The notes below the pieces were generated by a model. It saw nothing but the letters and a program-made list of their open reading frames with translations, did no database searches and was not told the origin of the DNA. Of a stretch of DNA of 64,000 bases, positions 3,500 through 62,909 are shown one piece after another (position 1 is the stretch's first letter; the number at the start of each line of letters is the position of its first letter). The translations under genes and the position numbers were made by a program. Source of the DNA: Actinomycetota bacterium. Lineage in GTDB: Bacteria; Actinomycetota; JAHEXW01. The stretch lies in the NCBI GenBank assembly GCA_041658625.1, contig JBAZZW010000002.1, positions 538,851-602,850 on the forward strand. The letters run 5' to 3'.

Positions 3500-3682
3500 T
3501 TAACCTCCGCGGGCTGCGTTTGATTCTTTGGAGAGATACTTGTTGACGGCTAGGGATTTAATACGGTAGCCGCGACCGACGCGAACTGCCGGAAGCTGCC
3601 CCACTTTGATTAGCCGGTAGACCGTCATCTTTGAAACACGAAGATGTGTCGCGACCTCAGATACCGTCATCAGCGTCTTCAT
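3500..3682 (-). CDS. excisionase-family helix-turn-helix DNA-binding protein
   Basis: 60 aa; LMTVSEVATHLRVSKMTVYRLIKVGQLPAVRVGRGYRI matches HTH_17/excisionase-type domain; 2 nt upstream of pilM. Confidence 0.6.
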   Translation of the reverse strand: MKTLMTVSEVATHLRVSKMTVYRLIKVGQLPAVRVGRGYRIKSLAVNKYLSKESNAARGG

Positions 3683-3736
3683 TAAGCCACCTCATGTGTA
3701 TTGCCTGCTCAAGCTACACTTAGGAATATTATCACT

Positions 3737-3817
3737 AGTTAACATTAGTTGTCAATCGTTACCAGTTCTTAACAACTGTATTACCTCGTTAACACGAGTT
3801 AACATCAGTAACATCGG
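3737..3817. promoter_or_regulatory. cluster of GTTAACA direct repeats (three copies at 10-bp spacing) upstream of HTH-pilMNOP operon
   Basis: GTTAAC at 3738, 3788 and 3798, GTAACA at 3809, plus GTTACC/TTAACA variants; sits 55-135 bp upstream of the 3682 start codon. Confidence 0.35.
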
Positions 3818-4126: not shown

Positions 4127-4591
4127 TTAGCTGCCTGTTGGATAAACCTTTATCCGGCCGATGCTTGTGGTTCTGATTACCATAGAGCGCTTGTTGACGA
4201 GCGCAGAGAACAAAAGCGGCACCCGTGCCCGACTCTCCACCTCAACATATACTTCAGTGTTAACAACTTTGACGTCTAACAGCTCCGCACCGCACAAACC
4301 ATCCAGGTTCTTCTCTACCCATTCCATGGCATCTTCATCGGAGGCATAGTTGTTTCGCGACCCGGATTCCGCCGCCTCACGTAGATCGATTTCCTCAGCA
4401 ACCTCACGCGCCGCGACGTCACTTGCCTTATATAGTTCCGCCTTAGCCGCCATCACCCGCCCGGCATCAATGCTCCACCCCATAAACAACAAAACCACCG
4501 GCATTATCGCCACAATCAAAACCGTAATTGACCCTTCTTGTGGCTTATGTTCTAAGTTCGTTCTCTTTTTACATGCATCAATTATTTTCAT
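4127..4591 (-). CDS. TadE/TadG-like pilus assembly (pseudopilin-like) protein
   Basis: 154 aa; N-terminal GSITVLIVAIMPVVLLFMGWSIDAGR...AAREVA resembles the TadE-like N-terminal domain. Confidence 0.45.
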   Translation of the reverse strand: MKIIDACKKRTNLEHKPQEGSITVLIVAIMPVVLLFMGWSIDAGRVMAAKAELYKASDVAAREVAEEIDLREAAESGSRNNYASDEDAMEWVEKNLDGLCGAELLDVKVVNTEVYVEVESRARVPLLFSALVNKRSMVIRTTSIGRIKVYPTGS

Positions 4592-4610
4592 TTTACGTCC
4601 ATGATTTTAC

Positions 4611-4634
4611 GGACACATTCCCGGGAATGTGTCC
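4611..4634. promoter_or_regulatory. 24-bp perfect palindrome GGACACATTCCCGGGAATGTGTCC (copy 1), between arsR-like gene and TadE-like gene
   Basis: Read directly; identical to copy 2 at 5041..5064; candidate operator or RNA hairpin. Confidence 0.5.
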
Positions 4635-4639
4635 GTCGA

Positions 4640-5038
4640 CTAATGGAGATATTTCCTAAAGAGACTGCTAAGGTTGCCTAGCATCACGTCCGTGACCACC
4701 CGACTGTCTTTGTCTTCTATTTCTCTGTTAAAGGAGTGTATTACAAGAAATAGCAGCATTTCATTCCTTAACGACAATCTGACCTTGCGAACTCTATAAT
4801 AGATAAACGATCCCCTGTTTCTATAGGTAACAAATCCGGCTTTGTTCAGGTCGCTTAGATTCCGCGAAACTGTTTTAACAGGCCACCCGCCCCGAATGCT
4901 GATTTCACCAACAGTTAGCGGTCCTGTATTGTTGAGCATTTCAAGTATCTCCAAACGTTTTCTGAAGCCAAGGACTTTGAAAATATTCGCCAAATCATCA
5001 AGTTCGTTCTTCTTTGTCATTTTCTCCTTTGCAAACAT
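4640..5038 (-). CDS. ArsR/SmtB-family transcriptional regulator
   Basis: 132 aa; winged-HTH LEILEMLNNTGPLTVGEISIRGGWPVKTVSRNLSDLNKAGFV; alternative start at ATG 5020 with AGGAG RBS. Confidence 0.8.
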   Translation of the reverse strand: MFAKEKMTKKNELDDLANIFKVLGFRKRLEILEMLNNTGPLTVGEISIRGGWPVKTVSRNLSDLNKAGFVTYRNRGSFIYYRVRKVRLSLRNEMLLFLVIHSFNREIEDKDSRVVTDVMLGNLSSLFRKYLH

Positions 5039-5040
5039 CA

Positions 5041-5064
5041 GGACACATTCCCGGGAATGTGTCC
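5041..5064. promoter_or_regulatory. 24-bp perfect palindrome GGACACATTCCCGGGAATGTGTCC (copy 2), immediately upstream of arsR-like gene
   Basis: Read directly; exact duplicate of 4611..4634. Confidence 0.5.
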
Positions 5065-5070
5065 TTACTT

Positions 5071-5835
5071 TTAAAAACTTACACTTCCGGTGTCTTGGAG
5101 AGAACGTGCAAAAGGCAGTTCGGGGGCCTTCTGCCCGGTTTCATTTATGTTTACGCCACGGAATGAGTTAATCGGGATTTCAAAATAAACAGTTGCCGTT
5201 GAGCCGTCTATCGCGGTGATTTGGACATAGTGCGTGCCTTGACCGCCGAAATCATATTCGCCCCTGGCTGTTATGTTGTTTGATAGTTGCGGATCCGTGA
5301 ATTGTCCAGTCGCCAGCGTAACCGTGTAATGCGATCCGTTTCGATCCTGCCGCCCGACAACAGCGTACACTCGATAAGACTGGATTGGTTTGTTTGCGGA
5401 GAACGCGATATTTAGGTCTAGGTGGGCCGGTTCGTCATTTTGACTCTGCCGGCGCCCGTCTTCTGTTAAATAATGCCAGCGGGTAAAAACATACGGTGGC
5501 GACTTTGCCACAGAAACCGTCACCTGCAACGGTTCTGCCCAATACCCGCTGGCCGCCCACTCTTGATAGGTCTGCCAATATCCGCTTGCAACCCAGGTTG
5601 AATATGGCGCCCAAGCCCAGTAGCTTGTGTCCACCCACGTCCAGTAGCTCTTATCGTGCCATTGCCACCAAGCCCCGACCCAGCCGGCACCAGGGCAATA
5701 CACGTCGCTTCGATGCTTATGATACCCCCATGCATAAGCGAAATACATCGGCCCCCAATTCATGCCAATTAGGGAGTCATCCTGAGGAGCAGAAGAGATG
5801 ACTGGCGACGAGGGAACTCTCACGATTCTACTCAT
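5071..5835 (-). CDS. hypothetical protein with Trp/Tyr-rich repeats (SYW/GYW every ~8 residues) and a C-terminal beta-rich domain
   Basis: 254-aa longest ORF in the region; unusual composition; no family recognised. Confidence 0.4.
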   Translation of the reverse strand: MSRIVRVPSSPVISSAPQDDSLIGMNWGPMYFAYAWGYHKHRSDVYCPGAGWVGAWWQWHDKSYWTWVDTSYWAWAPYSTWVASGYWQTYQEWAASGYWAEPLQVTVSVAKSPPYVFTRWHYLTEDGRRQSQNDEPAHLDLNIAFSANKPIQSYRVYAVVGRQDRNGSHYTVTLATGQFTDPQLSNNITARGEYDFGGQGTHYVQITAIDGSTATVYFEIPINSFRGVNINETGQKAPELPFARSLQDTGSVSF

Positions 5836-6200
5836 TCAGCCACAATCGTGCCTTGAGAATCGCTGGACAGTGAGGCAATCGCTTATAGAATCATCCGAAT
5901 GCTTGCCGACAAGTTTAATCCGATGTTGGCTCCCCGGGTTGTATGTTTTTCGCACATTCCGAGCTTGCATAAGACAAACCGAGGTCGTCTTCGACGCATC
6001 TACGAAAAAGCATATCCTTAAAAATGCCAATTGCTGCTTCGTCAAAATACACGTTTTCACACCTTCTGCCCGATGCTGGGCAAGGAGGCAATAAAGAACT
6101 TGGACGCATTGATAAAAGAGAATAGCGAGAAATGCCTGGACGTTGCCTCATAGTAATTGGCTGCAAAATCGACAAACAGAACTTACATAATAATGCGAGG

Positions 6201-8945
6201 CTACTTGGGCGGTTTAGCTGCTTTCAGTCGTTGTACGGCCCACTCGTTTGAAAGATCAAGCGATTGGTTTAGCTCGAACGAGGTGTCAGCTCGTTTCTTC
6301 TCAGCATTTCGAACTTCTTTGACGGAATCGTAGAACTGTTTGCCAATCAGACGTTGTTTCTCAATTGGAATTACCGGTACTGGTATTGCTCCAAGATCAT
6401 CCCATTCAACGCGGTGTCTACTAATACCTGTGGATTGAGATAAAAGGCGGGCTCGGACTTCGGGGCTTCGAAGAAATCCCCATAAAAACCAAACATCGAA
6501 TCTTGCGTCCTTAAGTCGCATAATAGTAAACTCCGACGAGGCAATTACACCCGAGAGGTCAGCAGGAATCACGGCAATGGAACCGAGGGCAGCAGCAATG
6601 TTGCTTGCTACAATATCATTTTCTTTTGGGTTTTGAACTTTACTATATGTAAGTTCTTCTCCGAGCGCCTTATCGCCTTCCTCGGGGATTCCGTCATATC
6701 GAACACGCAGTAATGTGTTTAGTTTGCTAGGCTCGTTTTTCGGATTGAAGCCCTCATTTTCAATCTTGTCGACTATTGTGTGTAGGGGAACAACATTAAG
6801 GCCATCGGCACGCCATTTGTCAGAAATGTCATTTGGGCGGGGGAGACACGACTTAACATCAAGACGATCTCCAATAAGGCCGCTCCTGACCCGCCAAGGG
6901 CCCTTTATCCCCTGCATAAAAAGATTAAAAGCCTCAAAAAGGTCCCTAGTTTCGTCTTCAGCTGCGGTACGAGCTTCAGCTGCTTTACTAGGCCGTGTCT
7001 TCATGGGCACATCATCAAGGCCTACGTAGCGACATTCATACATAAAGGCATCCGGCTGACTTTGCTTTTTCGCGTCCCGCCGAATGAGGTATAGGACCGA
7101 TGTCTTTGCACGAGCTCCAACACGTTGAAATGCGTCCCCAGGGATACTGATTACGGCACGAACTATAAAGCGATCCCTTATAAAATCTCGTGCGAAACGA
7201 TTATTTGAGGAACTCAAGATTGAGTCGTCAATTACAGTTACGAGTTTACCGCCTGGCTTAAGAATGTCTGCATATCGTTCTAAGAACATAATGCTCGACT
7301 TTAATGATGGGCGTTGTCTATTTGTTTTCCCAAAGCCAAAGGTCCTTAGAGCGTACTGGTTGAGAATTAAAGCCTCGTCTGGCAGCGTCTCTGAGTAATC
7401 CATCGAGAATGGTGGATTTGTTAGAACGATATCGAAACCTCGTCTGCTTCCATTTGATATTTCGAAAATAAGTTTCTGAAGCTCTTCGAGCTCAAAACGC
7501 GATTGCTGATCATCTCCGACACCATGAGACACTGTCTTATCAAGGCTGTCCGCCGCATATATCCGGCTACCGCCGTCTCCATGGAGATACATGTTGATTC
7601 GTGAAATCTTTGCTAATGGTGGTTCTTTACCTGCATCAATGCCAAATATGGAATCGTTGGCGACCCTTTCTAACAAGGCGTTTTGTTCGCTGTCGCTCAG
7701 AGAAGTGTTAGATCGAATTTGATTCCGCATGTCGGTGAGGGCTTCAATAAGGAAGCCTCCTGAACCACAACAGGCATCAATTACATGGTCAATATGGTCT
7801 TTTGATGCAATTGGGGCAGCGAGTTGTTCCATCATTTTTACAATAGACCTGGGTGTAAAGTATTGCCCCAAGGCTTGTCCCCGCATGGTGGCACTTAAGA
7901 ACGTCTCAAACAAACGACCGTTAAGGTCCTCATCAATGCTGTACAAATCAAGTGATTCTAGTTTCGAGACAACTTGTCTGATTGTTCCTATCTGGAGTTC
8001 AATATGGTCATTTGGCCCAAATATCGGTTTCTTCTTTCCTCGGGCAACGTCCTCTCTAAGAACTTCATTAAGCCTGGCAAAAAGGGTCTCATCAACTGGA
8101 TTCTTTACCCCCTGTGACTGCAGAGCATCAATCCAATGCGTTGAGAAGATAACATTGTCCCGTGGTATTGGTTTCTCGTCTCGTAGTAAAGGCCCCATTA
8201 TGGGGTCATCGTGTAGTTTTCGATCCTCCCAAAGCTTTACGAACATTATTTTTACGAACTCAAAGAAAGCAGGTTGAGGATTCATCTTCTCAGCTTTCCA
8301 TATAAGTCTATGACAGCTGTTAAAAACCCTTTTGATCTCCTCAACAGAAGGCTTTTTCATTAGAAAGCGTGGCTTTTGTATCGAAGGCTTCAGGCCTTGC
8401 CTAATAGTAGTAGCCTGAAGTAACGAGCGTACCGAAAAGAAGCTTATGTTGTCATCAGCAAAGTCGGAAAATTCCAGGCTGATTATAGGCTTGCTCTCAT
8501 CCCATTTATAAAGGTCAAATGCGAGACCATTAGTTATTACGTAGTATGAACAGGGGTTTTGATTGCTAAACTCTTGATTAAGCCCTAACGCATATCCAGC
8601 ACCTTGAAAAGCCCACTTGTCGATATCTTCCCCTGGTGATTTTGCATCGATTAGCCACATAGGCTTCTCGTTACAGTAGATGACGTAATCTGGCCTATAG
8701 CCTTCTTTTTTTCTGCCTCTGGCTACAACAATCTCTTTAAGAGATACCTTTGGCCGGATTTCAGAGTCTTTGTAGCCGAGATCCTTTAGCAAACGATTTA
8801 TAAAGAATGTCTCGACTGAAGACTCATCAACTAAAACCGCTTTATCACAGTATTTGTTTGACTTCGCGTCCTTGCCAGCGCGACTCAAAGAGTCTAGGAG
8901 CGTAGGGCGAAGTAGGTCACTTTGCGGGGTTTTTGACTGTTTCAT
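6201..8945 (-). CDS. single-chain restriction-modification enzyme: PD-(D/E)xK nuclease + gamma-class N6-adenine methyltransferase + HsdS-like target-recognition domain (Type IIG-like)
   Basis: 914 aa; N-terminal RPDYVIYCNE...WLIDAKSPGE nuclease core; MTase motif I VIDACCGSGGFL then motif IV NPPF; C-terminal IPVPVIPIEKQRLI typical of HsdS TRD ends. Confidence 0.75.
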   Translation of the reverse strand: MKQSKTPQSDLLRPTLLDSLSRAGKDAKSNKYCDKAVLVDESSVETFFINRLLKDLGYKDSEIRPKVSLKEIVVARGRKKEGYRPDYVIYCNEKPMWLIDAKSPGEDIDKWAFQGAGYALGLNQEFSNQNPCSYYVITNGLAFDLYKWDESKPIISLEFSDFADDNISFFSVRSLLQATTIRQGLKPSIQKPRFLMKKPSVEEIKRVFNSCHRLIWKAEKMNPQPAFFEFVKIMFVKLWEDRKLHDDPIMGPLLRDEKPIPRDNVIFSTHWIDALQSQGVKNPVDETLFARLNEVLREDVARGKKKPIFGPNDHIELQIGTIRQVVSKLESLDLYSIDEDLNGRLFETFLSATMRGQALGQYFTPRSIVKMMEQLAAPIASKDHIDHVIDACCGSGGFLIEALTDMRNQIRSNTSLSDSEQNALLERVANDSIFGIDAGKEPPLAKISRINMYLHGDGGSRIYAADSLDKTVSHGVGDDQQSRFELEELQKLIFEISNGSRRGFDIVLTNPPFSMDYSETLPDEALILNQYALRTFGFGKTNRQRPSLKSSIMFLERYADILKPGGKLVTVIDDSILSSSNNRFARDFIRDRFIVRAVISIPGDAFQRVGARAKTSVLYLIRRDAKKQSQPDAFMYECRYVGLDDVPMKTRPSKAAEARTAAEDETRDLFEAFNLFMQGIKGPWRVRSGLIGDRLDVKSCLPRPNDISDKWRADGLNVVPLHTIVDKIENEGFNPKNEPSKLNTLLRVRYDGIPEEGDKALGEELTYSKVQNPKENDIVASNIAAALGSIAVIPADLSGVIASSEFTIMRLKDARFDVWFLWGFLRSPEVRARLLSQSTGISRHRVEWDDLGAIPVPVIPIEKQRLIGKQFYDSVKEVRNAEKKRADTSFELNQSLDLSNEWAVQRLKAAKPPK

Positions 8946-9354
8946 GTGTTCATTATCATTTGACGGAAGAACTGCGTCAAGGTTCGGCCAAACACTGTCC
9001 TATATAGCGGTCAAGTGACAGACAACTAGACAACCCATTGCTAGGCGCATTGTTCATAGAAAAGGTCAGCCAAGTAAGTTATTTAATTTCTATCTAATAA
9101 GCCATGGCAAAACCTCATCACTCTTCGGTAATCATAGAGAATGTTCGAAGACGCTCCGGCGGCCGCTGTCGCGTCACTGTAAAGTGTCAACAGAAACGGG
9201 GGAACTCCAACTCCAGTTTGTTGTTTATTGTAGCCGAGTGGGCTACGAGTCTTCTTCAAAAGAATATTCCATATACATAGCGTTTCCTCAGCTCTTGAGG
9301 TTTAGCACTTGAAAGTACATAATGAACCTAATCTTGTCTACTGGGGAGTTAATT

Positions 9355-11817
9355 ATGCCTTTGAAGATTAAGCTTAAGAATCAGTTTCGTGAGCCCCTCA
9401 ATACGGATGCGGGTTTCGTCGGTCGTGAAGACGAATTGGCGCGACTCATTACGATATTTCAGCAGAGGCAAGCCGCAACAGTCCTAGTCGCTGGACATCG
9501 AGGGGTAGGCAAGAGCGCACTGGTTGACGAGGCCTTAAAACGCTCGCAAGCCGACAAGAAAAAGCGCGTAGTTGCTCGATTGACGTTGCCCCATCTATCG
9601 CCCGGTAGTTCGGATATTCGAGATCAAATACTTCAATCGCTGGCGCGCTCGCTATATTTCTCTATCAAAGACGACAATAGCGTTCCAAAACCTCTTCGCG
9701 AAGTCAGCAAGGTTCTATATGATAAGACCTATTTGAAGGAACTACACGAGCAGACTGGGGTCGAGTCATTATTCGAAACCGAAGCTAAAGCCCGATCAGC
9801 GACAAAGACAAAGACTTCAATCGCTTTTGGCAAGATAGTTTCACTTATTGTCGGAACGTCGCTCTCTGGTGTGGTTGCTATCGGAGGAATCGCGGTTATT
9901 TCGAGAATCGTTACGGATCATGGCCTGAGTTGGGGAATAGTGGCTAGCGCTGTCGTGTTGGTTACGGTTGTGCTTTCAGCTTATCAACTTAATCTCGAAA
10001 AAGAGGATGAGAATACGACTATTGACAAGGCAACGGCTTCTAACAAGATAAACCGAATCGGTCTTTACGACGTATCTCCCGAGACCCTTGAATTTGAGCT
10101 TCGCGATCTTATAAAGGAGCTTGCAGCTAAAGGTCATCCTTGTGTCTTCGTGATTGACGAACTTGATAAGCTAGAGGCTTTTCCCAAAGGCGTTCAGCAG
10201 GACCCTGAAAGCGCTGGGCAGGATTTTAAAAAACACATCATATTCAGGATTTTGTCCAGTTTGAAAAACTTCTTTACATTGGGTTCTGGAATATTTGTGT
10301 TTATTTCAGGGGAAGATTTCTACGCCCAACTAAATGGACCCATTGAAACAGACATCTATTCGTTAGCTCATACCTTGTTCACTGATCAGGTTTTTGTTCA
10401 GGTTCTCTACTATCAGGACGTGGAGCGCTTGATTGAGCAGATTATTGCCGAAACGCCTGCGGACGAGGAGGAGTACCATCGCTTCAGGAACTATTTGTGT
10501 TGGCGCTCTCGAAATCATGTGTTTGATCTCTTATCACTCATCGGGGAATTTGTCAGATTTGATAATCGAGGCCAGCCATTTCTTTGGGGAGAGAAATCAG
10601 GAGCTCAGGACGGGCATTGGCATGAAGGCAATCTACCGACGAACTGGGAAGTTGCTGCTGCTCTGCAGAAAATAGTGGGGGCCGCTTATGATGAATCGGC
10701 GAGGCCGTCTGCTGGAGAGCAGCGTTTCAATCAAGCATTGTGGCTTACCCAACTGCGAACGGCCTATGATCTGTTCGCTGATATGCCCGTGAAGGTGCCA
10801 GAGGCTGGTTTTGAGTTGCCTGCTGCTTATGCCTGGGTAAAGAATCTAACGCCAAACGATCTTGATGACCTTGCTGGCGCAGTCGAGCGTCTGCTGGCTA
10901 AACTTGAGAGGTATGGTGCGGTAAGAGTAGTCTCGGAGACACTCACTCCCGAGACAGAAGGCCAGCCCGATGTCTCTGTGACTAGCTATACACTAGTTGA
11001 AAACCCACCTTATCCGCCCACGTCAGTCAACTCTGAAGTACAAAGAATCCCACTTGAGGATTATTATCTCGATATCGGGGCGAAAGCGGAGCACCTCGCA
11101 AAGAATCTATCCGTCTTGGGCATTGAGACACCGCAGTTATCCGATGAAATCAACGCTGTCGTCGATCTAATACTCGCAGTCAAGAACATTTCGCCACGAA
11201 ACACAGTACCGAGAAGCAGGGTCAAAGAAGGAATTAAACGAGCAGACGTTCTTGCCGAACAGATGGTCGAGACCGGCGTTAATGCAGTTATTACAAAATG
11301 GGCGGCGGATCACGGGATGCAGCTTAGTCAGGCACTTTCAGAAATTGAAAACAAAACTGGCACGCCCTGGCAAGACTCGCTTACCAGTGAGTTCCCAGAG
11401 TTTGTTGAGGCTTTGGACATAAGCGAGGTTGAATACTTCATCATCGGAGGTTCAACTTCCGAGAACCAGGTTTTAGTGCTGAATAATCGACGAGATCGTG
11501 ATTTGACGGCAGTAAGCGAGGCTTATTCAAAATCCTTGCCTGGTGAAAAGGGTCGCGATAGACGGAAACAACGTCTTCCGATAGTTGTAGTGAGCCAGTT
11601 GTCTCCCGGCAAAAATCCTCAGATTCCACGCGAAGTCGTTGAGGTTATCCAAGAAACCGAAGGTTGGTCTTTCTTCTCTGCCGTACTTGGACTTTTACCG
11701 AAAACGAAGAGAGTCAAAACGAATCTGGCAGGATGGACTGTCTTTTCTCTCGATCCTAGCTTGGATAATTTGGAAGACCTACCAGCTGAACTAGAAACGG
11801 TCTCATACATTACATAG
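9355..11817 (+). CDS. KAP-family-like P-loop NTPase with two TM helices inserted between Walker A and Walker B; ~550-aa uncharacterised C-terminal region
   Basis: Walker A VLVAGHRGVGKSAL (about 9484-9510), two hydrophobic helices (about 9814-9997), Walker B CVFVIDELDKLE (about 10135-10170). Start taken at ATG 9355 (GGGGAG RBS) rather than track start 9322. Confidence 0.65.
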   Translation: MPLKIKLKNQFREPLNTDAGFVGREDELARLITIFQQRQAATVLVAGHRGVGKSALVDEALKRSQADKKKRVVARLTLPHLSPGSSDIRDQILQSLARSLYFSIKDDNSVPKPLREVSKVLYDKTYLKELHEQTGVESLFETEAKARSATKTKTSIAFGKIVSLIVGTSLSGVVAIGGIAVISRIVTDHGLSWGIVASAVVLVTVVLSAYQLNLEKEDENTTIDKATASNKINRIGLYDVSPETLEFELRDLIKELAAKGHPCVFVIDELDKLEAFPKGVQQDPESAGQDFKKHIIFRILSSLKNFFTLGSGIFVFISGEDFYAQLNGPIETDIYSLAHTLFTDQVFVQVLYYQDVERLIEQIIAETPADEEEYHRFRNYLCWRSRNHVFDLLSLIGEFVRFDNRGQPFLWGEKSGAQDGHWHEGNLPTNWEVAAALQKIVGAAYDESARPSAGEQRFNQALWLTQLRTAYDLFADMPVKVPEAGFELPAAYAWVKNLTPNDLDDLAGAVERLLAKLERYGAVRVVSETLTPETEGQPDVSVTSYTLVENPPYPPTSVNSEVQRIPLEDYYLDIGAKAEHLAKNLSVLGIETPQLSDEINAVVDLILAVKNISPRNTVPRSRVKEGIKRADVLAEQMVETGVNAVITKWAADHGMQLSQALSEIENKTGTPWQDSLTSEFPEFVEALDISEVEYFIIGGSTSENQVLVLNNRRDRDLTAVSEAYSKSLPGEKGRDRRKQRLPIVVVSQLSPGKNPQIPREVVEVIQETEGWSFFSAVLGLLPKTKRVKTNLAGWTVFSLDPSLDNLEDLPAELETVSYIT

Positions 11818-11994
11818 CTATGTTGCCTAGCATTCTTACAACAGATTTCGAAACAGCAATGAAAACTATCGAGTGCATCTAATGTTCATCGAATAAGTCA
11901 CCGCAAAACTCCGCTACTCCTCGTTAATCACAGAGTACTCTCTTTAAAGACAATCCGCAGACAAGGACAGCCATCGGGTGATATAGTAATACAT

Positions 11995-12059
11995 TGTTGG
12001 TTGCGCTGGAGGGACTACGAATCCGTAGGTTGGAGGTTCGGCTCCTCTCGGGCGCGCCA
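11995..12059 (+). other. tRNA-like 3' fragment (T-arm-like GGAGG-TTCGGCT-CCTCT, acceptor-like CGGGCGC, G, CCA); no matching 5' acceptor strand
   Basis: Read directly; antisense ORF 11924..12130 translates to the RSRTSNLRIRSP-type peptide typical of tRNA-derived DNA. Possible degenerate tRNA or integration-site remnant. Confidence 0.25.
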
Positions 12060-12161
12060 CATCTCACCTGGGCAACAGATGATGATTTCTTTAATTGACA
12101 AGGTATTATCTGGGGCAATCTAATACTCATCTAATATTGATTGTCGCCGACAAGGAAGGCA

Positions 12162-13028
12162 ATGATATACAAAGGCTTGTACTCTCAGCGCAAGAAAATA
12201 AACCCTGATGAAGATGTTTTTTCATATTCGCTCCCTGCCCCAGTAAGAGCTGCAATATTTAATATTATTAAAAACACCAATCCGAATTGGTCATCTCACG
12301 GCAAAACCCGAAGGCCTTTAAAGGCCATTGTTAAGGATTTTTGTGAAAATCATTTATTTCACGGGATTACACCAAGAGCAGAAGACGCTTTTGCATCTGG
12401 GTACCAATACGCCGACCACCAACTTACCGATGACCTTAAGGCATGGATCCAAACGACTCCACAAGAATCTTTGTTTGATTTTATTGAAGTAGCAATTATT
12501 AATATGAGCGAGTCTAATTTAACGACGCTTGTTAAAGATATTAATGATTTGTTTCAAAGGGAAATGATTGGATTTGAGATTGTAAACGGAAACATTATTG
12601 ACAAGTCTGATGAATTCCTTCATCAAGAAGTTGTTCTGCAGCCAATTCTTGGGCTAAAAGCAGGAGGATTTGAAAAAGCCGAACAAGACTTCATGAAGGC
12701 ATTGCAGGAATATGCCCACAAAGATTATGCGGGAGCCCTTACAAGTGCTAATACTGCGCAGGAAAGCGTTATGAAGAGGATTCTTGGAGTCGAAAAAGGT
12801 GTGTCAAGTGATTTGGTTAAGACATTAGTTGAAAGGGGCATAATCCCTTCATATATGCAGAATAAAATGTTACTGCCCGTTTCGATAAGAAACAAAGATA
12901 GCGACGCACACGGCAGGCTTGATCCAATTGACGTCACGCCGGAACTAGCTCAATACGCGATTCATTGTGTCGGGGCTAATGTTGTGTTCTTGCTCAAAGT
13001 TACGAATATGGACGGCACCCAACAATAG
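12162..13028 (+). CDS. hypothetical protein with C-terminal HEPN-like Rx6H motif (candidate abortive-infection/RNase-type effector)
   Basis: ATG 12162 preceded by AAGGAAGG RBS (track start 12141 is TTG); C-terminal SIRNKDSDAHGRLD fits the HEPN Rx4-6H motif; AT-rich gene. Confidence 0.45.
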   Translation: MIYKGLYSQRKKINPDEDVFSYSLPAPVRAAIFNIIKNTNPNWSSHGKTRRPLKAIVKDFCENHLFHGITPRAEDAFASGYQYADHQLTDDLKAWIQTTPQESLFDFIEVAIINMSESNLTTLVKDINDLFQREMIGFEIVNGNIIDKSDEFLHQEVVLQPILGLKAGGFEKAEQDFMKALQEYAHKDYAGALTSANTAQESVMKRILGVEKGVSSDLVKTLVERGIIPSYMQNKMLLPVSIRNKDSDAHGRLDPIDVTPELAQYAIHCVGANVVFLLKVTNMDGTQQ

Positions 13029-13070
13029 CTGTTTATCGGTTTTGGGTTTCTCGTTTTTAGGAATAATTGC

Positions 13071-13118
13071 AACCAGACTCATAATCCGCGGCAAGTTCGA
13101 GTCCTGCTGTGTTCCCCA
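13071..13118 (+). other. second tRNA-like 3' fragment (CTCATAA loop-like segment, T-loop TTCGAGT, terminal CCCA); no 5' acceptor strand
   Basis: Read directly; GGCAAGTTCGAGTCCTGC resembles a T-arm; lies just downstream of the HEPN-motif gene. Confidence 0.25.
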
Positions 13119-13192
13119 AACAGGAGCTAATAAAAAGGCCGACTCCAATAAACAGACGTCTCTTCTCCTATTAGTTCATGTTTATCGCCTTG

Positions 13193-13591
13193 CTATTTCA
13201 AAGATCGCGCCCTTTGCGAGGCGACATATTCTTCTAGGTCGCTTTTCTGTACTCTCCACGACCCCGCTCCAGCGCCAATCCTGAAGCCTAGCAAGAGCTT
13301 CTTGTTTAGCATGTCGTAGACCTGCGCCTCAGAGAACCGCAACAGCTTGGCGACCTCGCTGACTGTCAGCAAACGATTAGGGTCAGCCATCTTGGCGGCT
13401 TCTTTTTCCGCCGCCTTTTCGTGATACTTTCTGGCGTCCTCGGCGTTAATGAACTTACGCCGGCCGAAGCGAGTGGTCCGGAATTCCCCGCGGCGCATCA
13501 TCTTGCGAACCGTGTTCGGCTCCATTTGTAAAATCTCCGCAACTTCCTCAACACTTATATATCCCGTTTTGTTAGACATATTCATGACCAC
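13193..13591 (-). CDS. DNA-binding protein with two tandem excisionase-type HTH domains
   Basis: 132 aa; YISVEEVAEILQMEPNTVRKMMRRGEF and LLTVSEVAKLLRFSEAQVYDMLNKK are both HTH_17-like. Confidence 0.6.
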   Translation of the reverse strand: MVMNMSNKTGYISVEEVAEILQMEPNTVRKMMRRGEFRTTRFGRRKFINAEDARKYHEKAAEKEAAKMADPNRLLTVSEVAKLLRFSEAQVYDMLNKKLLLGFRIGAGAGSWRVQKSDLEEYVASQRARSLK

Positions 13592-18068: not shown

Positions 18069-18124
18069 TGTTACCTCCTCTTGAATGATATCTTTCTGGT
18101 ATCAATTGTATATCTCTTGTTTGT

Positions 18125-18146
18125 ATCAGGCAATACATTGCCTGAT
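18125..18146. promoter_or_regulatory. 10-2-10 inverted repeat ATCAGGCAAT-AC-ATTGCCTGAT about 57 nt upstream of vapB-like start; candidate TA operator
   Basis: Read directly; a second palindrome CCTCTCCCC-GGA-GGGGAGAGG lies at 18183..18203. Confidence 0.3.
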
Positions 18147-18471
18147 TATGATCAGCAAATATATTTGGCCCCTCACCTCAATCCTCTCCCCGGAGGGGAG
18201 AGGCAGTAACAAAACTCGAGCACCTATTCTGCGAGTCAAGACTGAGGGTGGGCGGGAGCCTCGAACATGGGTTTCCTTGAAGTTTTTCGCGCCGCCAGCC
18301 GCCGATTAATATAAAGGATCGAGCATGCGGACATTCCACGACTCGAGCGGAGAGCATTGTTTGCTCGCCGTGGCGACCTGAAACACGGGGTCAGGCCCTA
18401 TCTCATAAGAAGAAAGGGCCTGACCCCATAGCACTAACGATGGTAGGCCGCGAGCGGCATGCTCGTCTATT

Positions 18472-18933
18472 TTACCGGCGGGTTGTGCTTAGTGTTTTGT
18501 ATTCTTTTTGCGAGATGAGGCGGCGGGAGTGGGCTTCTTTGAGAATCCAGCGGGAGTCGTTGACTTCCAGGTCGGCGGACATTAGGTCTTCCCTCGCCCG
18601 CCGGTCGTCTGTGATAAGCGTGTATAGGTGGGTTAAGGCAAGAGCGGCGGAGTCGCGCTCGCCGGCGTGCATGAAATCGGTTTTGTATTCGGCAATCACG
18701 CGATCCTCGGCGGGGCTTACGTCAATTGTGCGGATCCTTCCGGCGGCGAGGTCGCGAGTGAAATCTTCTTTCCCGGGACCGAAGCCGTGGTACTCAAACT
18801 CTCGTTTGACCCGCTCGGCAACTGTTATGCCGCCTAATACGCGGTGGAGAATGTCAGGCCGGCCCAGATGGCAGTAGAACTTCATTAAGACGTCGGTATC
18901 GACGATATATCCGTTCTGAGTCATTTTACTCAA
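18472..18933 (-). CDS. PIN-like domain protein (putative nuclease/toxin)
   Basis: 153 aa; YIVDTDVLM N-terminal strand and GERDSAALALTH...LITDD acidic motifs. Confidence 0.45.
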   Translation of the reverse strand: MSKMTQNGYIVDTDVLMKFYCHLGRPDILHRVLGGITVAERVKREFEYHGFGPGKEDFTRDLAAGRIRTIDVSPAEDRVIAEYKTDFMHAGERDSAALALTHLYTLITDDRRAREDLMSADLEVNDSRWILKEAHSRRLISQKEYKTLSTTRR

Positions 18934-60657: not shown

Positions 60658-61023
60658 ATTGCCCTAGTCTTCCCTTTATAATCCACACCTCGGCCGTTAC
60701 CGTGAATTGCAGAGGAGTTATTCCCGCAATAGAGATAAGGATTGAGCGCCAACCTGTCCGTCGCCTGCTGCGGCATAGCGTCCCGGGAGATGAACCTGCC
60801 GGTCGCAGGATTGTAATACCTGGCGTTTAAGTAATACATCCCGGTCTTGTTACCTGGGGTCAGGCCCTGTCGCTTAAGAGGAGAGGGCCTGACCCCAAAG
60901 CCGACCCAATGGATTCCCGAAGGTGCCTGTCGCAACGATATTCTTGGCTGTCAAGTTGCTTCCGTCCCAGACCCAGGCATATTCCGTCGGGTTCCCCCGG
61001 GCGTCATAAGCCCAGCTCCGTCA
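60654..61023 (-). pseudogene. RHS/YD-repeat protein C-terminal remnant (frameshifted), ending in a short C-terminal tip
   Basis: ORF 60654..60935 encodes MYYLNARYYNPATGRFISRD...NPYLYCGNN (RHS core end); upstream a different frame encodes YDARGNPTEYAWVWDGSNLTAKNIVATG; no intact N-terminal RHS body. Confidence 0.55.
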
Positions 61024-62710: not shown

Positions 62711-62909
62711 CGTAAGTGCTATTGAGGTAACAAAAAAGCTGGCTTCCCGGGTTATACGTTTTTCGCACACTTAGGATTTTGCATAAAGCCAGCTGAGAGT
62801 GGCTTCTTGTTGCATACGGGGGCGTAGATCACGCAAATCCGGGCGCCGACGCCGTAAAAACCTTACGCTTCACAACCTGGCCTTATAGGCAAGAAAGGGC
62901 ATTTAAACG

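Follow-up and report, generated by a model that had tools for sequence, protein, structure and literature searches.

The stretch of DNA analysed here, a 64-kb window from an Actinomycetota bacterium, carries a gene for a small winged-helix regulator of the ArsR/SmtB family that lies within a tad/Flp operon and is bracketed by two copies of a palindromic 24-mer, GGACACATTCCCGGGAATGTGTCC. On the minus strand, an aromatic-rich gene is followed after 6 nt by the upstream palindrome, and the likely ATG of the arsR-like gene comes 20 nt further on. The downstream palindrome begins 5 nt past the arsR stop codon and ends 19 nt ahead of the ATG of a TadE/G-like gene. As argued below, the balance tips towards the two palindromes being operators of the repressor encoded between them. 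The features at the locus, in the order of transcription, are as follows.

5071-5835, minus strand: aromatic-rich tad-operon gene, upstream of the cassette (no Pfam family matched)
5041-5064, no strand: upstream palindrome copy c2, GGACACATTCCCGGGAATGTGTCC, within a perfect dyad of 26 bp (5040-5065)
4640-5020, minus strand: gene for an ArsR/SmtB-family winged-helix regulator of 126 aa (Pfam HTH_5, NCBIfam, AlphaFold2 model)
4611-4634, no strand: downstream palindrome copy c1, GGACACATTCCCGGGAATGTGTCC, within a perfect dyad of 28 bp (4609-4636), ACGGACAC...GTGTCCGT
4127-4591, minus strand: TadE/TadG-like pseudopilin-type gene, downstream of the cassette (PF13400)

The palindromes and the regulator between them

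A preliminary description of this DNA had reported two identical 24-bp perfect palindromes on either side of the regulator gene. Both were located by exact match, and the dyads to which they belong are even longer (28 and 26 bp). Within the window, GGACACATTCCCGGGAATGTGTCC occurs exactly twice, with no further match at up to three mismatches and a chance expectation of 0 in 100 dinucleotide-preserving shuffles. No inverted repeat in the window is longer than these two copies, and no other perfect palindrome without a spacer has arms of 10 nt or more. A chance origin of long perfect palindromes was rejected, as 0.1 are expected in 112 kb and 16 are seen. At both sites (5040-5065 and 4610-4635), perfect symmetry covers 26 bp of the form (A/C)GGACACATTCC-CG-GGAATGTGTCC(T/G), which can be read as 12-2-12. 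Proteins of the ArsR/SmtB family recognise 12-2-12 inverted repeats, located either upstream of their target genes or inside them, with one or two repeats per operator region (PMC8790569). The 20 nt between the upstream palindrome and the arsR-like ATG contain an AAGGAG ribosome-binding site, and four further assemblies of this population, made independently (L003-L006), show both copies of the 24-mer unchanged.

The open reading frame (ORF) of the bracketed gene spans 4640-5038 on the minus strand, with the likely start at 5020, behind the AAGGAG, and an alternative start at 5038. Its earlier assignment to the arsR family agrees with Pfam HTH_5 (5.8e-9, 36.1 bits against a cutoff of 22) and with the ArsR/SmtB profile of NCBIfam (NF033788, HTH_metalloreg, 58 bits against a cutoff of 55), just as the TadE-like character proposed for the downstream neighbour agrees with a Pfam Tad/TadE match. 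By sequence, the closest solved relatives of the regulator are ArsR, Lmo1102, SmtB, SrnR, HlyU, and CzrA. The AlphaFold2 model has a mean predicted local distance difference test (pLDDT) score of 81.6, with 92-98 over residues 11-80, and follows the topology of the ArsR/SmtB family, a1-a2-a3-aR-b1-b2-a5 (helices at 3-17, 20-32, 37-44, 48-60, and 84-96; strands at 64-69 and 72-77), to which it adds an extra C-terminal helix at low confidence. Its top Foldseek matches in the PDB are SmtB, NolR, CzrA, SqrR, BigR, and HlyU, with target-normalised TM-scores of 0.70-0.82. The recognition helix region reads PVKTVSRNLSDLNKAG. No metal- or redox-sensing site of the known kinds (alpha3N CXC, alpha5 DxHx10Hx2E, or paired Cys) was found: cysteine is absent from the translation, and the a5 segment, RNEMLLFLVIHSF, does not carry the alpha5 motif. 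The protein is therefore a non-classical member of the family rather than a classical metal sensor.

An exhaustive profile search found the subfamily to be rare, with about 20 full-length clusters among 1.84 billion representatives. Across these clusters, the most variable positions are the beginning and centre of the recognition helix, along with the wing. PADLOC matches the regulator best to the winged helix-turn-helix (wHTH) domains of the CRISPR-associated regulators Csa3/CasR (2.4e-12), and its match to a stand-alone Csa3_1 profile of 118 positions is nearly full-length. No cas genes were noticed among the examined ORFs, which cover part of the window, and membership of the three genes in a defence system was rejected, nothing beyond this wHTH-domain similarity pointing to it. 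A phage or plasmid origin of the regulator was also rejected, with zero phage matches and, on plasmids, just generic ArsR proteins of below 40% identity.

Related loci and their matched palindromes

Contexts were compared for relatives of the window ArsR and for homologs of the adjacent aromatic-rich protein. The comparison yields four bracketed cassette types and two that are partly seen. The palindromes agree within a locus and differ between loci, and the downstream copy is often degenerate among the relatives.

Type A, the window and L001 (regulator 83% identical): upstream, the 24-mer, in L001 identical and inside a 32-bp perfect dyad; downstream, the 24-mer, matched at 22/24 in L001
Type B, L024/L025: upstream, a 38-bp perfect palindrome; downstream, a 42-bp palindrome with one mismatch; common 28-bp core ATTCGCGAGTACTCGAGTACTCGCGAAT
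Type C, L026: upstream, ATGCGCAATCGCGCGATTGCGCAT, beginning directly at the end of the preceding stop codon; downstream, a degenerate copy
Type D, L008: upstream, TATTTGCGCAAATA, twice; downstream, two imperfect copies
Type E, L011: upstream side off the contig; downstream, a 30-bp perfect palindrome
Type F, L002: upstream, a 28-bp perfect palindrome; downstream, a degenerate copy

The centre-to-centre spacing of the bracketing palindromes is 430-483 bp across loci. The loci L002, L024, and L026 span 10-11 kb each, and arsR is the only place in them with perfect palindromes that lack a spacer and have arms of 10 nt or more. Three further operons (L028, L029/L030, and L031) have the aromatic-rich and Tad genes directly adjacent without arsR, and no palindrome lies at the aromatic-rich/Tad junction in L028, L029, or L031. 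These arsR-less operons indicate that arsR is an insertion in the tad operon. Palindromes are likewise absent from the locus of the outgroup protein P0008 (L012, ArsR 30% identical), which has a different gene context. Variant palindromes are carried by two unrelated metagenome contigs (L017 and L021) on which an ArsR-like gene is absent nearby.

Pairwise protein identities set the regulator apart from its flanking genes.

Window versus L024: aromatic-rich 79%, ArsR 33%, Tad 81%
Window versus L026: aromatic-rich 64%, ArsR 38%, Tad 71%
L024 versus L026: aromatic-rich 64%, ArsR 48%, Tad 76%
Window versus L001: aromatic-rich 74%, ArsR 83%, Tad no value
Window versus L008: aromatic-rich 51%, ArsR 40%, Tad 51%

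Between types, ArsR identity stays at 33-48% regardless of the similarity of the operons. The same break is visible in the nucleotide identity of the window and L024, which is 63-87% up to about position 5081, falls to 30-60% from the upstream palindrome across arsR and the downstream palindrome, and is back at 80-93% from 4528 onwards, some 60 nt inside the Tad gene. Because the regulators of these two loci are 33% identical between flanks of about 80%, the palindrome-regulator-palindrome unit is a swappable specificity cassette, with a history distinct from that of the flanking genes. Literature searches found nothing on an ArsR gene within a tad operon with bracketing palindromes.

In the wider contexts, the tad/Flp operon comprises HTH_17, RcpC/CpaB, TadA, TadB, TadC, Flp, a protein of about 235 aa, the aromatic-rich protein (about 350 aa), and the TadE/G-like protein, with HTH_17-pilMNO coming next in L024 and L026. 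In the window, a 5' truncation leaves the aromatic-rich gene with 254 aa, versus 331-376 aa in homologs. The part from tadZ to flp, present in L024, L026, L028, L029, and L031, is replaced in the window by a low-GC defence island (GC 0.43-0.49) encoding a type IIG N6-methyltransferase/Eco57I-like enzyme, a STAND/AAA_16 ATPase, and AbiJ. The region and its genes are as follows.

5071-13500: truncation/defence-island region, with minus-strand genes at 5071-5835 and 6201-8945 and, on the plus strand, 9322-11817

Elsewhere in the window, a 10-2-10 palindrome, ATCAGGCAATACATTGCCTGAT, lies at 18125-18146, about 50 nt upstream of a small minus-strand gene that starts near 18073. By eye, the product of this gene is ribbon-helix-helix-like, and the palindrome looks like the ordinary autoregulatory operator of a toxin-antitoxin-type pair.

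Candidate operators of the bracketed regulator

A sequence-specific link between the protein and its palindromes is the reading that the comparison supports best. It rests on the matched, type-specific brackets, on the palindrome-free junctions of operons that lack arsR, on a site of the size bound by the family, and on the invariance of the 24-mer in diverged contexts. The last point comes from copies elsewhere in what appears to be the same genome, three of which lie inside a composite repeat of about 300 nt; its backbone is 78-88% identical among them, and all 24 positions are invariant (0.784^24 = 0.003). The earlier proposal that the palindromes are cognate sites of the bracketed regulator is thus strengthened by matched pairs in four cassette types and by the clean junctions without arsR.

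From these sequence facts, the co-variation and incongruence of the cassettes, and the fold and family of the protein, we infer binding and repression. The self-contained unit of palindrome, regulator, and palindrome would have entered between the last two genes of the tad/Flp operon in an Actinomycetota sub-lineage. Each dyad would be bound by a homodimer or by two dimers. The upstream site may limit transcription that enters or starts at arsR, which would amount to autoregulation, and the downstream site may gate the TadE/G-like gene. As neither site has a consensus promoter beside it, repression may take the form of a roadblock to operon read-through rather than promoter occlusion. Protein and sites vary together, and entire units have passed between otherwise similar operons in the manner of the repressor-operator immunity modules of temperate phages. 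Copies of the site elsewhere in the genome could serve as further targets or as decoys.

Two known systems help to place this arrangement. In the immunity regions of temperate phages, the cI gene of lambda is flanked by the operators OL and OR, and heteroimmune lambdoid phages swap repressor-operator modules. The window cassette is similar in having a putative repressor gene between candidate operator regions of the same dyad, and in module co-variation and exchange that lead to incongruence. However, its protein is a wHTH ArsR and not a lambda-type HTH, it resides in a chromosomal pilus operon without phage genes, and divergent promoters are not evident. The fold and family of the window protein are those of the ArsR/SmtB repressors (SmtB, CzrA, ZiaR, AztR, NolR, HlyU, and BigR), with which the cassette also shares a dyad site of about 26 bp beside the regulator's own gene and an adjacent putative target gene. 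In contrast to these repressors, the window protein is without metal- or redox-sensing residues, having neither cysteine nor the alpha5 metal motif, and has a predicted additional C-terminal helix. Its sites are perfect instead of imperfect, reaching 38-42 bp in other types, and they occupy the intercistronic gaps on both sides of the gene, with no promoter recognisable there. The gene lies inside a pilus operon, and further copies of the site are dispersed in the genome. The cassette is plausibly described as an ArsR/SmtB repressor with its dyad operators, set apart by the perfection of the palindromes that bracket the gene, by modular exchange within a tad operon, and by dispersed copies that recall repetitive extragenic palindromic (REP) elements.

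A number of observations weigh against operators at these sites. No sigma70-consensus promoter was found beside either arsR palindrome copy or at the dispersed copies of the 24-mer by a scan that covers this one promoter type, and the palindromes occupy very short intercistronic gaps. At neither copy did the scan place a promoter that would make the palindromes autoregulatory and target operators, as suggested in the preliminary description, in the classical sense of overlap with a promoter. The scan is able to detect promoters in this genome, since it finds that of the pilM operon at 3755-3728. This near-consensus sigma70-type promoter, TTGACA-16-GATAAT (11/12; 3728-3755, minus strand), lies ahead of an HTH_17 gene (3500-3682) and pilM-pilN-pilO. 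Looping between the two sites at a constant helical phase was rejected, as spacings of 430-483 bp keep no constant phase. The core of the recognition helix, TVSRNL, is almost constant although the palindromes vary greatly between types, and symmetry that is perfect through the centre and extends to 38-42 bp in type B goes beyond what recognition by a dimer alone would ask for. The symmetry also extends past the core: copy-specific self-complementary pairs (AC/GT, A/T, GCTT/AAGC, GGT/ACC, and TCTT/AAGA) add up to 15 extra pairs in nine copies versus three expected (P=5e-5), and both type B copies add five pairs of differing sequence. This flank complementarity points to one of two causes, selection for a hairpin or cruciform, or a mutational bias that perfects inverted repeats. 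Template switching at quasi-palindromes is known to extend and perfect inverted repeats (PMC7202029, PMC3820800, PMC8794818).

Further points against operators come from the dispersal of the site, as at least five extra perfect copies and one near-perfect copy occur in the apparent same genome. Their neighbours are functionally unrelated (TauE; a thioredoxin-reductase-like protein and DUF4349; DUF3795 and a HEPN/MNT pair; an ABC ATPase and an IS481 transposase; a PstS-like protein behind a molybdenum cofactor (Moco) riboswitch; PanD/NadB), and one copy is located between the 3' ends of the convergent DUF3467 and UvrA genes. A search with the 24-mer, suggested earlier as a way to define a regulon, thus returned more sites, but a coherent functional regulon was not seen among the neighbour genes.

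Dispersed copies and rival explanations

The dispersed copies came to light in a scan of Joint Genome Institute (JGI) metagenomes. The full 24-mer is present at five separate sites on one 968,577-bp contig and also on L018, a contig of 5,967 bp that comes from a sister sample; a one-mismatch version is present on a 104,882-bp contig. Protein accessions of the 968-kb contig (MFA5866716), the 105-kb contig (MFA5867919), and the window ArsR (MFA5867814) belong to one 'Actinomycetota bacterium' series of a metagenome-assembled genome (MAG), and from this close numbering the two contigs and the window appear to be one assembly. Several other dispersed repeats are shared by both contigs and the window. 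The apparent copy number in this genome is about eight in at least 1.1 Mb, with no further copy in the remaining 63 kb of the window. The extra copies sit in long intergenic regions of 270-650 nt, alongside at least eight other kinds of long perfect palindrome, and occur in both orientations relative to genes. A repeat widespread across bacteria was rejected, as the 20-nt core pattern was found in one contig among 185,579 species representatives and had zero matches in IMG/VR.

The composite repeat that houses three of the copies (L014 340-720; L018 1150-1500, reverse; L020 400-720, reverse) consists of a hairpin, GGGGAGAGG, a palindrome, CCCGCGGACTAGTCCGCGGG, a variable palindrome module, the 24-mer, and a tRNA-like 3' end, GTTCGAGTCCTACCCGGGGAGCCA. 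No complete tRNA is recognised in it by ARAGORN, and a tRNA or tmRNA at the tRNA-like fragment beside some copies was discarded, none having been found. The single GTDB match, labelled Paceibacterota (JBBAAE010000024.1), was rejected as an occurrence in another phylum, as both ends of this contig are 97-100% identical to parts of the 968-kb contig of the Actinomycetota genome. Positions 1-146 and 11659-11784 of this sequence (L007/L023, Ga0265292_1002730) match adjoining, overlapping segments of L014, 465-610 (97%) and 576-701 (100%), respectively. It resembles an 11.5-kb insertion variant in which a direct repeat of about 35 bp holds the tRNA-like 3' end, and its deposition in a 'Candidatus Paceibacterota' MAG is probably a case of mis-binning.

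Other repeats and RNAs were noted in the same material. The window has short dispersed intergenic repeats at 5922-5973, 18166-18472, 60856-60901, and 62740-62802 that are 84-98% identical to the MAG contigs (L014-L019) and include the hairpin CCTCTCCCCGGAGGGGAGAGG adjoining GGTGAGGGG. A 36-bp perfect palindrome 3' of the Tad gene in L028 (6726-6761; GCA_043725015.1) recurs nearly unchanged at L022 6405-6438, between panD and nadB in the window's MAG, with a compensated T/A swap as the difference between the two palindromes. Palindrome families are therefore common to distant genomes at unrelated loci. The 968-kb contig also carries Moco/tungsten and adenosylcobalamin riboswitches and a selenocysteine tRNA (L019 1209-1347 and 5130-5273; L014 3917-4007).

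Dispersal of this kind is what a REP-like element, or a bacterial interspersed mosaic element (BIME), would display. Such a palindromic repeat would have spread by transposition or duplication, any activity it has would come from DNA or RNA structure, and its bracketing of arsR would reflect an insertion preference or a REPtron-like arrangement. One end of a REP palindrome is marked by a GTAG or CGTC tag, and the genes for REP-associated tyrosine transposases (RAYTs) are flanked by their own REPs, forming REPtrons (PMC3733652). The likeness goes beyond the extra copies in long intergenic regions beside other palindromes, three of them in a composite repeat and one between convergent genes. It includes palindromes of 20-40 bp in intergenic mosaics, several families per genome, other dispersed repeats common to these contigs and the window, flank complementarity above chance, and a single-copy gene that is bracketed as RAYT genes are (PMC3733652). 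Nonetheless, this explanation is unlikely. About eight copies in at least 1.1 Mb contrast with tens to hundreds per genome for REP, no GTAG/CGTC tag is present in the flanks of nine copies, and the palindrome is perfect, without a loop. Between the two copies lies the gene of a wHTH protein that has no HUH/tyrosine (HUH/Y1) transposase domain, and invariance of all 24 positions is atypical of elements that act by structure alone. The matched palindromes of the cassette types also argue for a specific link between protein and repeat. A REP-type repeat unrelated to the gene is contradicted by this co-variation, together with the copy number, the missing tag, and the lack of a RAYT. What the preliminary description named as a refutation, a 24-mer that is a widespread genomic repeat unrelated to the regulator, holds in part, given at least five more perfect copies and one near-perfect copy.

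A further possibility, considered rather improbable, is a new type of repeat-protein system, a 'wHTH-REPtron'. Small ArsR-like proteins would each lie between two copies of a private perfect palindrome that is also scattered in mosaics, and protein and palindrome would co-diversify into many specificity types, to which the about 20 protein clusters would correspond, and be exchanged as units. The regulator would then be a dedicated repeat binder rather than a conventional operon regulator. It would contribute to the maintenance or spread of an HUH-free repeat family or have a genome-wide architectural or silencing role.

The palindromes could also act as intercistronic hairpins in the tad mRNA that set the relative levels of the aromatic-rich, ArsR, and Tad messages by attenuation, processing, or protection from 3' exonucleases. 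Their placement suits this role, as both copies on the one strand begin 5-6 nt past a stop codon, and the next start follows about 20 nt later. Stable hairpins are predicted on the sense strand (-17.3 and -19.3 kcal/mol, z about -4.2 to -4.4), and their stems are lengthened by copy-specific compensated pairs. However, no U-tract follows the hairpins on the sense strand, where the tails are UGAUGUUUGC and GUAAAAUCAU, and the one feature at arsR that resembles a terminator, at 5040-5065, belongs to the antisense (plus) strand. An RNA structure would tolerate compensatory change, yet the 24 positions are invariant across diverged contexts, and the sequence shared by the two copies of each cassette would be left unexplained. 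Mismatches in imperfect copies that are compatible with G-U pairing are about equally frequent on the two strands (four antisense versus three sense), and the dispersed copies occur in either orientation relative to genes. No Rfam family reaches its gathering score at the palindromes of the window or of seven related loci. The hairpin alternative offered in the preliminary description is thus thermodynamically possible, but it fits poorly with the strict invariance and with the sharing of sequence within a cassette, and it is considered very unlikely.

Similarly poor prospects attach to the idea that the palindromes are boundary or recombination sites, that is, the ends of a mobile gene cassette whose hairpin or cruciform is read by a recombinase encoded elsewhere, with solo copies as deletion scars. 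This would accommodate the insertion of arsR relative to L028, L029, and L031, the incongruence of cassette types with their flanks, and the break in homology around the upstream palindrome. It would also suit bracketing copies that, being identical, are direct and inverted repeats simultaneously, and solo copies that lie near an IS481 transposase and near the 11.5-kb insertion site with its tRNA-like core. A shared recombinase, however, predicts conserved sites, whereas each type has its own palindrome, and no recombinase is linked to the cassette. The unit always occupies the same operon position and orientation, and the right-hand break in homology is about 60 nt inside the Tad gene, away from the palindrome. 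Among the loci compared, there is no empty site with a solo palindrome and no inverted allele, and phage or viral matches are absent, including in IMG/VR.

If the protein does bind the palindrome, as favoured here, the locus would represent a compact, modular repressor-operator cassette that exists in several orthogonal specificities. The dispersed copies raise the question of whether a transcription-factor site has come to act as a REP-type repeat or a REP-type repeat has gained a dedicated binder that is not a transposase. The fixed position of the cassette in a pilus operon of uncultured Actinomycetota would provide a natural experiment on the co-evolution and swapping of specificity and site, and a source of orthogonal parts. 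For the organism itself, the repressor-operator reading, if true, would imply conditional control of the last tad gene.

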